A DNA stretch of 64,000 bases from Eledone cirrhosa (lineage: Eukaryota): contig OZ024743.1 of NCBI GenBank assembly GCA_964016885.1, forward strand, positions 311,240,001 to 311,304,000, read 5' to 3'. The position numbers and the translations under genes are program-made. Of this stretch, positions 3,114 to 60,169 are shown piece by piece (position 1 is the first letter of the stretch; each line of letters starts with the position of its first letter). The notes under the pieces were generated by a model. The model did not search any database and was not told the DNA's origin. It saw only the letters and a list, made by a program, of their open reading frames with translations.

Positions 3114-3174
3114 TTCATTTACCAGTGGTTTCTTGAAGGCAGATGTTATGTCTGTATTCAGTCGTCAGAATGAA
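3114..3174 (-). ncRNA. Type I hammerhead ribozyme (family A), minus-strand copy
   Basis: Reverse complement reads ttcatt-CTGACGA-stem II-GAAA-ccactgg-TA-aatgaa. Confidence 0.75.
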
Positions 3175-3210
3175 TAAAATCCATATTTAATAAAAACAAC
3201 ATGTTATTTA

Positions 3211-3271
3211 TTCATTCTGACGACTGAAGACAGACATAACATCTGCCTTCAAGAAACCACTGGTAAATGAA
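3211..3271 (+). ncRNA. Type I hammerhead ribozyme (family A)
   Basis: ttcatt CTGACGA c tgaagacaga..tctgccttca a GAAA ccactgg TA aatgaa; stem I ttcatt/aatgaa; predicted GUA cleavage triplet. Confidence 0.8.
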
Positions 3272-7530: not shown

Positions 7531-11815
<4,285 letters not shown>

Positions 11816-24071: not shown

Positions 24072-24124
24072 GAGATTCCTGATGATTTCTAAAGAATGAA
24101 ACGGTTCTCGTCCTGTAGAATCTC
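24072..24124 (+). ncRNA. Type I hammerhead (family C)
   Basis: gagattc CTGATGA tttctaaagaat GAAA cgg ttctcgtc ctg TA gaatctc; 7 bp stem I. Confidence 0.8.
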
Positions 24125-29694: not shown

Positions 29695-30125
<431 letters not shown>

Positions 30126-30188: not shown

Positions 30189-30856
30189 TCCGTAGTAAAC
30201 AGCTGGCGAAGGGAAACTTCTCTTGTTTACGTCCCGATTACCTTCTCACACTTCGTTTTCAGTAACCACACAGCCTCGCCTCTTTACTGCTGTGAGCTCC
30301 TCTCTACATGTCTTGCTCGATTTGTTGTCCCTGGCCGGACTCATGTCCCACCACGGATCGACTCCCTCCCTTTCTCTCTCTATTTCTCTCCCTCTCTCTC
30401 TCTCTCAACCTCTGTCCTCTAGCCCCTCTCACTTCCGGTTTCTCCGTCTTTCTCTCTCTCTACACTCACTTTACTAAGAATCGGCACGGAAAAACCTTGC
30501 TCCTCAGTTATTACGGCCACCGGACTTATACCCGGTTACTTACATACATGTGCCATTGTCCTGTGTTCCCCCTTCTATCGGTATGTTTACTTCGTTTTTT
30601 CCGCTTTTCCTGTTTTCTTCTTCCTTTTTTCTTTTTTCTTTTTTCCTCTCTCTTCACTATCAATTCTTTCTCTCGAGGCCTTTTGATAGTTAAAAGGCTC
30701 TGGGCGCGCTACGGATCGATGTTCTGTTTTAAGCACCGAAACATCTAAGTTCCGTAGTAAACAGCTGACGAAGGGAAACTTTTCTTCTCTTGTTTCCTTC
30801 TCTTGATTACTTTCTAACACTTCGTTTTCAGTAACTACACAGCCTCGCCTCTTTGC
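30189..30856 (+). mobile_element. ~562 bp CT-rich unit with terminal direct repeat
   Basis: tccgtagtaaacagctg.cgaagggaaact..cacttcgttttcagtaac.acacagcctcgcctcttt at 30189 and 30751; flanked by TA repeats. Confidence 0.8.
30708..30775 (+). ncRNA. Candidate permuted/pseudoknotted hammerhead (family X)
   Basis: ctacgga tc gatg TT ctgttt taagcacc GAAA catc taagt tccgtag t aaacag CTGACGA aggg. Confidence 0.45.
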
Positions 30857-31106
30857 CTGTATTTATATATAAAATATTGGTTGCCAGGAGGTAAAGGGGC
30901 CCACCTACAGATAAAATGCTATCATTTAATTTTTATAATGAATAAATAACAATTTCAAAAAATACATAAGTGGAAACAAAAGAGTGCAATCAAATTTTTG
31001 CGGAAAAATATCTCACCCTCTCCAATAAAATATTATGTATTTTGGGAAATCCAGAGACTTTCAATAATGACCTTTGGTCTTTCACACTCACTCAATATAT
31101 ATATAC

Positions 31107-31800
31107 AGTCGTGTCCGCTTAAGAGTATATCGGATAAGGGTATAGGCCGCTTAAGAGTATAGCATAATCAATTCCCGAATTTATGTACTATGTTTTGTAC
31201 AGTGCATGGGTCCGCTTAAGAGTATATCGGATAAGAGTATAGTTCGCATAAGAGTATAGCATAATCAATTCCCGTTTATATATTTTCTATGTAATTTAAT
31301 CCGAATAAGAGTATAATGAATACGGTAAAGTAAATTGGGCTTATAATTGTTTCCACTTTTGGCACCAGGCCATCAAATACCCAGTACATTACTGGTACTT
31401 TATTTTATCGACCCCGTAAGGATGAAAGGGCTTATAATGTAACATAATCATTTTAAAACAATTCAAAATGAAATACGATGATGTCATTTATACAACCATT
31501 CTAAAAACAATTTAAAGTTTAATATATGCAAATAAAAAATAATAATTCATTGTATCATAAAAATGTCTTTGAAACGCTCTGCTTTATCCATTACTCAAAG
31601 GTTAGTATGTATTTTTATATTTATAATATGAATGTGCATAGGTACCTAATATAACTTTAATCATTTATCAATATTTTAGATCTCTGGAAAAGAAGGAATA
31701 AATGCTTTGTTGACTGTACGGTCCTATATGATGCAATCGTTTGAAAATTTTGAAAATTATACTCTGTCTGAGATCGAAGAAATTGATTGAAAAAAAATTG
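31107..31800 (+). mobile_element. pogo/Tigger-like DNA transposon 5' end
   Basis: TA|CAGT start, multiple subterminal taagagtata repeats, MSLKRSALSITQ at 31563 resembling a psq-HTH start; SINE fragment at ~31345-31430. Confidence 0.55.
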
Positions 31801-31814
31801 CGAGCAATCGAGTG

Positions 31815-31884
31815 CCAACCGGAGGTATATGGTCTTTAAAGCGATGAAATACCAATGATGGTTGGAAGATCACTGATGAAGGAC
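31815..31884 (+). ncRNA. Candidate permuted hammerhead with kink-turn (family Y), copy 1
   Basis: ccaacc gGA ggta TA tggtctt taaagcgat GAAA tacc aat GA t ggttgg aagatca CTGATGA agg. Confidence 0.5.
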
Positions 31885-32459
31885 TAACTTTATTCATATG
31901 TAACCCATTTGCAACCACGCAGGACGTTTATTCTCATATTTACACATATGTTTTCCCCCACTGTGACCCGTCTATTTCGTTCTTACTGCTTCCTCTTTCT
32001 CTGTATCTTTACCCTCTCTAACAGTCACTCTCTCTGTTAGCCTCTTCCTCACCCTTCACTCACTCACTCTCTGTTATTACCTCTCCTCCTCCTCATCCTC
32101 CTCCTCCTCCTCCTCCTCCTCCTCCTCCTTCTTCCCGTTTGACCTGTGCGTAATTCTTTTCTTTCGCACGCTTGGTCAGGCTGGTTCGCTTTTTTTCTCT
32201 CTCTCGTCACCGAATTCACAGACTAGATTTCTTCTTCCTCCCGTTAGACCTGTACGGAATTCCGTCCTTGCTCACATTCCAACCAGGTTTGATGGTCTTT
32301 ATTCTCTCTCGTTCACGATTTCACCGAACTTATATTCATGGAAATTTGGGACTTGACTCGTTCTTCCTCACTTTTCGTTGCTTCACAATCTTTGTTTGTT
32401 TACACTCTCGTGTCCCCTTTATTTACATGTCCCAACGACTTTTTTAGCAGTTGCTCGCA

Positions 32460-32529
32460 CCGACCTGAGGTATATGGTCTTTAAAGCGATGAAATACCGA
32501 TGATGGTTGGAAGATCACTGATGAAGGAC
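32460..32529 (+). ncRNA. Candidate permuted hammerhead with kink-turn (family Y), copy 2
   Basis: ccgacc tGA ggta TA tggtctt taaagcgat GAAA tacc gat GA t ggttgg aagatca CTGATGA agg. Confidence 0.5.
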
Positions 32530-32537
32530 TAACTTTA

Positions 32538-32594
<57 letters not shown>

Positions 32595-32610
32595 CATATA
32601 TACACACACA

Positions 32611-32742
<132 letters not shown>

Positions 32743-32782
32743 CATACATATATATATACACACATACACAAATACACACATA

Positions 32783-32828
<46 letters not shown>

Positions 32829-32835
32829 TATATAA

Positions 32836-35046
32836 CGCGAGGACCAAAAACGTGAGCGGTTCAGGATTGCTAGGCAATGTGTCAAGGAAAACCGTGATAT
32901 TGTCGGGGAGAAGTGTGTCCTTAATGATGATGGCGTACTTGCCATCACCGACGCTGATAAGAAGGTAGCTTGGAAGTGTCACTACGAAAGGCTACTAAAT
33001 AAGGAGAATAAATGGGAGAATAACAGTCTCCCCCACATCGATCCAATAGAGGAACCAGCAGTGCTAGTTGAAGGTAGTATAATAAGTAAGGCAATCAAAG
33101 ATATGAAGACGGATAAGGCGGCTGGGCCTTCGGAAATAGTTGCTGAAATGCTGAAAGCATCTGGAACGGTGGGACACACCATGGTCACCCGGATAGTAAA
33201 CGAAGTCATACAGAATGGGGTTGTTCGGAAGGACTGGCGTAACATCATCATCATTAACTGCTACAAGGGTAAAGGAGATGCCCTAGATAGGGGTAACTAT
33301 AGAGGCATTAAATTAATCGACCAGGTCATGAAGGTCACAGAAAAAGTAATAGCGCAACTAATCAGAGAGCGAATTGATCTAGATGAAATGCAGTTCGGGT
33401 TTGTGTCAGGTAAAAGTACCACAGACGCTCTTTTCATTGTACGACAACTACAGGAGAAGTACCTGGCTAAAAGTAAACCCCCTATACTTAGCTTTTGTTG
33501 ACTTGGAGAAAGCCTTTGACAGAGTCATCCGCTCCATTATCTGGTGGGCTCTTAGAAAACTAGGTGTTGATGAATGACTCGTAAGAGCTATACAAGCGAT
33601 GTATAAAGAAACAGTCAGCAAGGTTAGAATTAACAACGAATATAGTGAAGAGTTTAACGTAAAAGTTGGTGTTCATCAGGGCTCCGTTCTTAGCCTCCTA
33701 CTATTTATTATTGCCCTTCAGGCTATAACAGAGGAGTTCAAGACCGGCTGCCCATGGGAACTCCTATACGCAGATGATTTAACGCTCATAGCTGAATCAA
33801 TGGCTGAACTAGAGAAGAAATTCCAAACATGGAAGCACGGCCTAGAATCAAAAGGCCTTAAAATTAACCTGTCTAAGACTAAAGTTCTAGTTTGTAGGAA
33901 GGAAAATAGGGCACCGGTCCCATCTGGGAAATGGCCATGCTCAGTGTGTAGGAAAGGAGTAGGCAGAAACTCCATTTTATGTCCCAAATGCAAAGTATGG
34001 GAGCATAAAAGATGTAGTGGGATCACAGGTAAGCTAATTAAGAATATAGATTTTATATGTGGCCGGTGCTCTGGTGCAATAAGTAGCAGCAAGTGCAAGT
34101 GCCCACAGGATACTAGCTCATTCCATTACACAGATGGTTCTATAGAAATAGTGGACAACTTCCGTTACCTGGGTGACAAAATCAGCAGTGGTGGAGGGTG
34201 CTCTGAAAGTACAGTAGCTAGAGTTAGAACGGGATGTAAAAAGTTCAGAGAGCTTATACCACTATTGGTCGCTAAAGGGTTCTCTCTAAAAATGAAAGGC
34301 AGGCTGTATGATGCCTGTATACGAACAGCAATGTTACATGGCAGTGAGACTTGGGCATTGTGTGCAGAGGATATACGCAGACTGGAGAGGAACGAAGCTT
34401 GTATGCTCCGCTGGATGTGTAATAGTAATATTTGTGAACGGCAAAGCTTAAATGAACTAAGGGAGAAATTAGGAATAAGAGGGATCAGATGTTGTTTACT
34501 CGAGAGAAGACTACGTTGGTATGGTCACGTGATGCGCATGAAAGACGACAGCTGTATAAAAAAGTGCAGGGCGATAAAAATAGACGGTATCCACGGAGTA
34601 AGCAGCCCCAGAAAAACCTGGGACGACTTGATAAATTCCGACCTCACACACTTACACCTCTCCAAGAAAATGTCACTGGGCCGAGATCTTTGGCGCTACA
34701 CGGTAATACAGAAGACCCGCCTTGCCTAAGTACAAAGCGAAACCTACAGTCAGTAGGCACCTCTAACAAAAATACACCCCCGTCCACTACCCCTACCCCA
34801 TCTACACCACCCCTTTCAATGTAAAGTTATGTTGGTACCACAACATCCAGTCCGAAATAAATGAGGTCGTGTAGGTAACACGGTAAAAACCTCCCAGTCC
34901 ACACTGTAAACGTGGTTGGTGTTAGGAAGGGCATCCAGCCGTAGAAAACCCGCCAGACTGTCCTATACGAGCAAGACAACCAATCCTGCCTCAAGTGGGA
35001 AAATTCCCGTCCAAACCTATGCAAGCGTGGATGATGGACGTTAAAC

Positions 35047-35112: not shown

Positions 35113-35880
35113 AAACTGGAACGGGAACAAAAACAGAGAAGCAGTGCAAACAAAGGTTTATTAGTTTCACGCTCTTGTGAGTGGAGGGGTGGGGTGGGGA
35201 ACGACGTTTCGGGCATAAGCCCTTCTTCAGGAGAAAAGAGGGGGGAAGAGAGTTCCGAGGGTGTGGGGGGGGGAGACACTTAGAAAAAAAGGGAGGGTCG
35301 GTGGAAAGGGTACAAATAAAAATTAAAATAAACATAAAGATAGACAAGTGGTGGAAGGGTGTGGGTGGTGGCGGGTGGAGAGGGAGGGGGGTCCGAGCGG
35401 GGAGGGCTGAAGGTGGTGTTTGTGTATGTGTGTAGGGGTACGTGTGTGTATGTGAATGTGAGAGTTGAGGGAAGAACGAGATTACATGTACAGGAAAAGG
35501 TGTATGCGTGTGGATGGGGAGGGGTCAGAGGGGTGGGGGAGGGGAAGGATTCTGGAGCTGACTGTGTATATGTAGGGGTACGCACGTGTGTGTTGGTGTT
35601 TATACGTGGTGTGGATGTAAGTGGCGTGGTTCGAAAAAACATTGTGAGTGTATATACGTGGGTAAGTTCCTAAGGTAGTACCGAGGAGTGTGCGAAGAGT
35701 TGCTGGATATTTTTCATGTTATGGAGTGGATAGCTGGAACGATGAGCGGTGGTATGTAATCCGTTGGTTGTAGTGGTCGGAAGTGGGGACATGTGGGGTG
35801 CGCGCGCAACAGGATGTGGTCAGAGGGTCAAGGCAGGATGAAGGCATAGCAGTAGAGGAGAATGACAGGCGGAGAAAGTC
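35107..35880 (-). mobile_element. PLE 3' terminal region, paralogue of ~42990-43865
   Basis: Inverted homology; ends with HHR-like CTGAAGA a gggc ttat gccc GAAACGTC. Confidence 0.7.
35198..35236 (-). ncRNA. Minimal hammerhead motif (family G); degenerate copy at ~43746-43782 (+)
   Basis: Core and stem II intact, ACGT palindrome in place of stem III, stem I poor. Confidence 0.5.
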
Positions 35881-48612: not shown

Positions 48613-48648
48613 TCTTAACGTTTCGCAGGCTAGTCCTTCATCAGAAGA
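48613..48648 (-). ncRNA. Minimal hammerhead (family B), stem II mutated
   Basis: RC: tctt CTGATGA aggactagcctgc GAAA cgTTA aga. Confidence 0.6.
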
Positions 48649-54897: not shown

Positions 54898-55765
54898 CTT
54901 GTAGACACCTGAAATATAACTTAAGAGAAACTTACCAATAAGAAGAGGCACCCTAATTCGAACTTGTTTATAGAATTCATTCTGCCTGTCTCACTCTAAA
55001 TATAGCTTTAAAGAATTACATTTTAAAGAATTCCGCTTTCTTTAAACCATTGACCTCCACCCATCTTGTAGACACCTGAAATATAGGCATTGTTAGCTTA
55101 AGAGAAACTTAAAAATGAGGAGTGGTCTCCAATCTGTACTTGTTTATAGAATTCTTTCTGCCTTTGTCACTCCAAATATAAATTATAGCTTTAAAGAATT
55201 AGCTTTTAAAGAATTCCCTTTTCTTTAAACCCATCAACCGATCACCTCTACCCATCCCAATCCCGACTCTCTCCTACCACCAGAAAAGATATAAATACCA
55301 CCATATTTACTTGGATAGTCAGCTACCTGATGATTTCTCATGAATGAAACAGTTCTAGTCCTGTAGAAGCTTTTCTATATTAAACATTTATACTCTGCTA
55401 TGTATTGAGTACCTTACTTACTGTGGTTACCCCCGATTGAACCCGGAATAATTTATATATATTATAGAATTCTTTCTGCCTTTGTCACTCTAAATATAAA
55501 TTATAGCTTTAAAGAATTAGCTTTTAATGAATTCCCTTTTCTTTCAACCAATGACCTCCACCCATCCCACTCCCCACCCTCTCTTACCACCTGAAAAGAT
55601 ATAAATACCACAACATTTATTTTGGACAGCCAGATTCCTGATGATTTCTAAAGAATGAAACAGTTCTAGTCCTGTAGAATCTCATCTATATTAAAACTGT
55701 TATACTCTGCTATGTATTGAGTACCTTACTTACTGTGGTTACCTCCGATTCAACCCTGAATAACT
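54898..55765 (+). repeat. Tandem partial copies of the family C terminal repeat with two hammerheads (55321-55371, 55632-55682)
   Basis: Matches 38325-38710; CTGATGA tttc..gaat GAAA cag ttctagtc ctg TA gaa occurs twice, ~311 bp apart. Confidence 0.85.
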
Positions 55766-55768
55766 TAC

Positions 55769-55822
<54 letters not shown>

Positions 55823-60130: not shown

Positions 60131-60169
60131 TGAACAAGTACTTTCATGCTTTCGCAATCTTCAGGTTCA
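60131..60169 (-). ncRNA. Minimal hammerhead in pseudo-LTR (family H); second copy at 55969-56007
   Basis: RC: tgaac CTGAAGA t tgc gaaa gca t GAAA gtac TT gttca. Confidence 0.8.

Follow-up and report, generated by a model that had tools for sequence, protein, structure and literature searches.

We found hammerhead motifs in the genome of Eledone cirrhosa (3.0 Gb, microsatellite-rich) whose conserved blocks are arranged in the 5'-3' order cleavage site, GAAA, CUGANGA. The analysis started from a stretch of 64,000 nucleotides (contig OZ024743.1, positions 311,240,001 to 311,304,000), which is called the window below. The block order, the intact core, stems I and III, an additional helix (P0), the tandem repeat units that carry the motif and the pattern of their insertion can all be read from the DNA. 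From these features, it is very probable that the RNA cleaves itself, as a monomer or as a dimer. It is also likely that the motifs are self-cleaving hammerheads on a new scaffold, at which the transcripts of non-coding, retrozyme-like retroelements arranged in tandem are processed. What is new here is the setting, an animal genome, and the scaffold; the strand order itself is already in print.

The window contains three of these motifs, all on the forward strand. A generic descriptor of the order site, GAAA, CUGANGA, with stem III of at least 4 pairs and stem I of at least 5 pairs, gave exactly three matches in the 64 kb, with position 17 at 30723, 31829 and 32474. The family X motif (30708..30775) consists of P0 (30709-30715 / 30751-30757), stem III (30718-30722 / 30741-30745), U16.1-U17, stem I (30724-30729 / 30759-30764), GAAA (30738-30741), CUGACGA (30765-30771), an extra A and a 2-bp stem II (GG/CC). 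Its cut is predicted directly 3' of U17 (30723), and nested MFE folds place a hairpin directly upstream of its P0 (30677..30699). Family Y is present in two copies that are identical at 82 of 85 positions, copy 1 at 31815..31884 and copy 2 at 32460..32529, with predicted cuts after A17 at 31829 and 32474, respectively. P0 and stem III were recovered by nested folding in all three motifs (z -1.2, -2.8 and -2.2), a procedure by which the pseudoknotted stem I cannot be scored. In the window and the sampled loci together (1.56 Mb, both strands), which are enriched in the motif by selection of the loci, the generic descriptor gave 189 matches compared with 0 in one block shuffle. An Rfam scan of the window returned no hammerhead among the 150 matches listed of 184, and those listed were driven by microsatellites.

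The preliminary description of this DNA had placed the helices and core blocks at these positions, and had proposed the pseudoknotted strand order, the three cuts, a reduced stem II and terminally redundant units. Each of these proposals agrees with our analysis, the cuts by structural analogy. The kink-turn signature, the copy number and the Penelope-type insertion pattern described below are additions to it. It had also presented the strand order as possibly new, which it is not: Eckert, Friedrich, Weinberg and Weinberg described it in 2023 as type SGC, a non-circular permutation, in 583 sequences comprising HRIMA-1 and the SGC variants (PMC10085705). According to the portions of that report used here, none of them lay in the genome of a known organism and the motifs were almost all confined to metatranscriptomes. 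The published ribozymes cleaved at 0.007-0.19 per minute, SGC-3 required all four of its helices, and the origin of the non-circular permutation was left open (PMC10085705). A search of the literature outside subscription journals found no later report of type SGC in animal genomes. Standard descriptors miss the present motif: those of types I-III by construction, as had been expected, and the published SGC descriptors, which we re-implemented in Python, with 0 matches compared with 191 for the generic descriptor. The published SGC descriptors call for CGAAA, for either CUGAUGAG or CUGAUGAUG, and for two further pairs in stem II (PMC10085705).

The motif is abundant in the genome. One exact pattern matched 9,266 times and its reversed control 0 times; a second matched 12,817 copies and its reversed control once, and the first 100 matches listed for each all belong to families with the SGC order. 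Looser patterns added family Z (within 1,428 matches) and family U (within 645), both lists including some false positives. Loose patterns also brought up families V and T, which were left out because both turned out to carry canonical type I hammerheads. At least 241 pattern loci in metagenome and viral contigs gave 4 weak, unrelated matches, none with P0. Five related families are thus recognized (X, U, Y, W and Z). They have in common an upstream hairpin, the GC of the linker and the GG of the tail, and the equivalent of the hairpin at 30677..30699 was predicted in most of the subfamilies that were folded. Intermediates link Y, W and Z, and others link X and U. Covariation and shuffled controls, which the preliminary description had named as checks, both spoke for the motif, as did the reversed controls. 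X and Y are not unrelated families but distant relatives, since they have the upstream hairpin, the linker GC and the layout in common and are bridged by intermediate subfamilies. The support that they lend to the motif is therefore correlated rather than independent.

All of the conserved core bases are present, with H at position 17. When CUGANGA was left free in the family Y pattern, CUGAYGA was kept in 96 of the first 100 matches listed of 9,831, and the four exceptions carried different single changes. When U16.1, position 17 and GAAA were left free, U16.1 was kept in 100 and GAAA in 96 of the first 100 matches listed of 10,798; position 17 was A in 73 of these, C in 27 and G in none. Across 206 copies from all of the families, position 17 was G in 0 and N7 alternated between U and C. 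Intact cores were found in 66 of 74 copies. In a less biased but weak test, singleton changes affected 8 of 814 core positions and 78 of 4,518 other positions, which indicates near-neutral decay of individual copies; selection would therefore act on the source elements and not on the inserted copies. Because a core pattern had been used to pick many of the loci, the pooled comparison of core and flank (0.9% vs 5.6%) was disregarded. These observations bear on the idea that the motif is the descendant of a hammerhead and has lost its cutting activity, or retains too little of it to matter, its fold being kept as a structure for binding or priming by the retrotransposition machinery. Stem II is irregular in the most abundant families, the ends of the copies do not coincide with the cut site, and Naiad elements are described as spreading without detectable hammerheads (10.1101/2021.04.23.441226, in the part used here), all of which would suit such a fold. 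On the other hand, variation at the free positions falls just where catalysis tolerates it (N7 as U or C; position 17 as A, C or U but never G; the extra base after A9), and each of the 11 core bases holds the majority in all of the subfamilies. In addition, natural hammerheads with a 1-2-bp or mismatched stem II are reported to be active (PMC3088659, as far as its text was used). A non-cutting relic is therefore improbable in our judgment, and we regard the motif as a probable ribozyme.

The helices are supported by covariation. In 67 distinct Y motifs, 95.9% of the cells were paired, and 47 cells were changed on both sides compared with 10.6 after shuffling, a value reached by 0 of 500 shuffles. 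Sliding the alignment as a control reduced pairing to 25-50%. Further pair types in this alignment were not above those of shuffles (428/500). Among eleven subfamily representatives, 65 of 66 positions in stem I and 55 of 55 in stem III were paired, and each of the six pairs of stem I occurred in alternative forms. Because the subfamilies are kin, this covariation amounts to a handful of independent events. U1.7 may take part in a tertiary A-U contact. The predicted stability of stem I is low (-2.7 to -9.7 kcal/mol), and CUGANGA can instead form a competing nested hairpin with the pyrimidine-rich tail (-0.8 to -11.6). The pairing of stem I also bears on whether X and Z are canonical type I minimal hammerheads, which would take their GAAA from beyond CUGANGA and make the blocks upstream a coincidence. 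Such a GAAA lies 3 nt past the core in X1 and 1 nt past it in many Z copies. However, Y, W, X2 and X3 have no downstream GAAA, and a type I descriptor gave no match at the SGC-order sites. Moreover, nothing downstream is able to pair as stem I while the upstream partner covaries, which already contradicts this reading; we consider it very improbable and retain the SGC order for all of the families.

P0 covaries as well and was paired at 39 of 42 positions in Y, W and Z representatives, the three misses coming from one subfamily that is out of register. Of 21 representatives, 2 were mis-parsed and dropped; in 18 of the other 19, the strand between stems III and I paired more strongly with its 5' partner P0 than with the alternative 3' partner, and the latter pairing breaks in Y variants. 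P0 thus takes the place of an interaction helix between this strand and the 3' tail. The junction between stem III and P0 in Y, W and Z matches, at the level of sequence, the kink-turn consensus including the Kt-23 variant (PMC2790904, in part): a 3-nt bulge (15 different triplets) is followed by G.A in 70 and A.G in 67 of 78 copies, counts obtained with a regular expression of fixed spacing. In Y copy 1 this signature spans 31821..31859 (+), with 3n-2n-1n at 31821-31823 (G, G, A), the bulge at 31854-31856 and 1b-2b-3b at 31857-31859 (G, A, U). The k-turn definition and the 3b.3n rule applied here are those of PMC4382518, according to which, in the part used, 3n=G or 3b=C favors folding in ions alone. 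In Y and W, 3b.3n is almost never Watson-Crick (2 of 69), as in Kt-7 and Kt-23 (PMC4382518, PMC2790904, both in part), and 3n=G or 3b=C occurs in 50 of 69; in Z it is Watson-Crick in 5 of 9. The 2b.2n pair is A.U in 8 of 9 Z copies, as in Kt-23. The bulge followed by G.A and A.G is common to these junctions and the known k-turns, whereas here it is a sequence signature and is missing in X and U, where a plain 3-5-nt bulge takes its place. No natural hammerhead with a k-turn was among the matches listed in the literature search.

The irregular stem II is the main risk to the cleavage reading. One extra base follows A9, and stem II consists of two G-C pairs in X and U, the only families with G10.1-C11.1. 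In Y it is made of G.U, G.A and A.G, in W it is rich in G.A, and in Z it is mixed, so that the regular stem II of the published descriptor (G10.1-C11.1 and at least 2 further pairs) is not seen in these families. Active natural hammerheads with such reduced or mismatched helices do exist (PMC3088659, in the part used). The tightness of the pseudoknot raises another question, because the same core and order might be active only as a domain-swapped dimer, in which the CUGANGA strand of one copy would pair into the loop of another within the same tandem transcript. The gap between P0 and stem I is only 0-1 nt in X1, Y, W and Z, and nested homodimers were 3-10 kcal/mol below two monomers, a standard-state figure in which the pseudoknot is unscored. 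The minimal hammerheads of Penelope-like elements are also thought to cleave as dimers (PMC7761336, in part). However, stem III of the present motif is stable and not palindromic, unlike that of a co-resident minimal type I family (window 48644), and family U has a longer linker. In addition, the strand lengths (14-16 and 22-24 nt) are near those of the SGC-1 and SGC-2 oligos (13 and 17-19 nt), which cleaved as single-copy constructs in the experiments reported in the part of PMC10085705 used here. We therefore favor the monomer by analogy with the published ribozymes, and an obligate dimer seems unlikely.

Other hammerheads and repeats are present in the window. In the abundant minimal type I family at 48644 (-), with family loci L482-L496 and 3,442 first-look candidates, CUGAUGA is followed by an extra A, stem II is 4 bp long and stem III is palindromic. 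The family has 14 bases identical with family Y from CUGAUGA onward and nothing else detectable in common. This family is a possible donor of the CUGANGA block, and the resemblance could be due to chance. A canonical type I repeat family occurs at 24079, 38585, 55327 and 55638 (+) and 12017 (-), with a tandem unit of ~318 nt at 55144-55779 and an inverted remnant near 30044-30110. Hammerhead-like cores of the minimal type at 60164 and 56002 (-) flank broken Penelope reading-frame pieces (59636-56540), a family with an extra A and a GGG/CCC stem II lies at 35230 (-) and 43751 (+), and 3168-3217 holds cores as a near-perfect inverted pair. Reading-frame pieces at 8901-11341 are presumably Helitron Rep-helicase-like, judged by their motifs. 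Between the X and Y arrays, 15-17-nt tandem repeats (31115-31259) form part of another dispersed element, and a very common 87-nt dispersed repeat (31343-31429) resembles, we assume, a cephalopod SINE.

The motifs are carried by repeat units. The family X array (30190..30865, +) is 5'-truncated and comprises 1.2 units of a 562-nt non-coding unit; preceded by (TA)n, it begins within an incomplete first ribozyme with a mutated core and ends ~142 nt past the predicted cut. The family Y array (31815..32545, +) comprises one full 645-nt unit and 86 nt, is bounded by two ribozyme copies, begins at P0 and ends in (TA)n ~70 nt past the second predicted cut. The (TA)n microsatellite joined to its 3' end (32546..32834) is the presumed insertion target. 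Broken LINE-type reverse transcriptase fragments, which we take to be RTE-like by their motifs, follow directly (32836-34726, +); they are probably independent insertions, and the same type of neighbor occurs at locus L018. In the five families the units are 560-800 nt long, tandem, pyrimidine-rich and without credible reading frames. The purine fraction on the ribozyme-bearing strand is 0.28-0.33, and two units folded as circles lay ~22 kcal/mol lower than 20 shuffles although their pairing reached just 39-46%. One array contains nine ribozymes and eight full units that are 98.4-100% identical.

The insertion pattern resembles that of Penelope-like elements. Among copies with the whole motif that end within 250 nt of the predicted cut, the 3' ends cluster past the cut at ~70 and 113 (Y), 98 and 150 (U) and 95 and 145 (X) nt. 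The 3' end is followed by (TA)n in 61 of 74 Y, 30 of 33 U, 14 of 18 X and 6 of 13 Z copies. Head-to-head pairs were found at 10 of 50 loci compared with 1 for tail-to-tail, and arrays were longer than one unit at 17 of 50. Public contigs contain the same (TA)n junction as loose ends. Three sequencing runs from one sample, which may be the one behind the assembly itself, resemble genomic DNA and show only the presence of the element and its (TA)n junctions. Thus, a (TA)n target, a fixed 3' end, a ragged 5' end and an inverted 5' partner are all present, marks described for Penelope-like insertions including Naiad (10.1101/2021.04.23.441226, in the part used). Copies extend beyond the cut site and can exceed one unit, which a linear cut monomer could not have templated; a circle or a multimer fits, as has been proposed for retrozymes in the parts used of PMC7761336 and of Li, Clavereau and Pollet 2026 (10.64898/2026.07.22.740005). 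The 46 sampled GIY-YIG loci (of 10,595 first-look candidates) yielded no autonomous partner, with no SGC match and no shared element sequence; their flanks contained only independent Y insertions. In a search for a Naiad-type sequence, the best 150 of 23,995 matches included no protein in which an N-terminal endonuclease is joined to a long C-terminal part. At loci L195-L240, 36 of 47 GIY-YIG reading-frame ends had no CUGANGA within 900 nt downstream and may use another ribozyme or none, and long frames of 938 aa (L225) and 1,096 aa (L227) may be intact elements.

A mechanism can be proposed from these features. P0 and stem III would fold first into a hairpin, and the cut site, GAAA and one strand of stem I would lie in its loop. 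The downstream strand would then pair back into this loop, forming stem I and bringing in CUGANGA, while the kink-turn (Y, W and Z) or the 3-5-nt bulge (X and U) would bend P0 back to meet the end of stem I in place of a 3' interaction helix. Read-through transcripts of the arrays would be cut at successive ribozymes into monomers of 560-800 nt, which are probably circularized. A Penelope-like reverse transcriptase acting in trans may prime at a (TA)n target that lies 70-150 nt beyond the ribozyme and copy less or more than one round. This would account for the fixed 3' and ragged 5' ends, for arrays that are near-identical and for the inverted 5' partners. The SGC order with similar strand lengths cleaves in vitro (PMC10085705, in part). 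We also put forward, tentatively and with some doubt, a bolder reading in which the architecture is distinct from published SGC. The kink-turn would join stem III, P0 and stem I in a closed ring, by which the core is held in place although stem II has few or no Watson-Crick pairs, or else helix II would be replaced by a small hairpin 3' of CUGANGA, breaking the block rule behind the six-permutation scheme. Such an architecture may have arisen independently in the animal lineage from a resident Penelope-type minimal hammerhead, and it would drive retrozymes that are invisible to type I screens.

The rarest hammerhead wiring has so far been represented by unassigned environmental RNA; these findings would place it in an animal genome, at ~20x the published count and with covarying subfamilies on record. 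Type I descriptors in surveys of retrozymes and Penelope elements can miss whole families, which bears on reports of elements without hammerheads. As short natural constructs, the motifs could show how much of stem II is dispensable and whether the contact between stems I and II can be replaced by a kink-turn, perhaps one stabilized by protein. They also provide a system for tracing the origin of a non-circular permutation, which Eckert et al. did not settle (PMC10085705).

Comparison with known systems places the element near several of them. With Penelope-like elements and Naiad (10.1101/2021.04.23.441226, in the part used) it has in common the (TA)n targets, partial tandem arrays, an inverted 5'-truncated partner and fixed 3' ends, whereas its units have no open reading frame and no link to any sampled autonomous element. 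Animal retrozymes are defined by a type I hammerhead (PMC7761336, de la Pena and colleagues; 10.64898/2026.07.22.740005), and circular RNA has been demonstrated for the non-LTR group; the present element has the SGC order instead and is described here from genomic sequence. Its units are longer than the typical 150-300 bp but inside the 51-972 bp range of Li et al. (10.64898/2026.07.22.740005). As in the accounts of non-LTR retrozymes in the parts of these reports used, the units are non-coding and tandem with one hammerhead each, thousands of copies are dispersed, and Penelope-like elements co-occur; by analogy, the element would work like a non-LTR retrozyme that departs from the type I definition. 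Likewise, the motif would work like a type-SGC hammerhead with two features changed. Published SGC, in the part of PMC10085705 used, has a regular stem II and an interaction helix with the 3' tail, whereas here stem II is 2 bp or non-canonical and P0 lies on the 5' side, extending stem III across a kink-turn signature or bulge. The S-G-C block order, all of the core bases, the pseudoknotted stems, the extra base between A9 and G10.1 and a III-to-I strand held in a helix are common to both, and the 583 environmental sequences known from that report compare with more than 12,000 copies here in animal chromosomal DNA.
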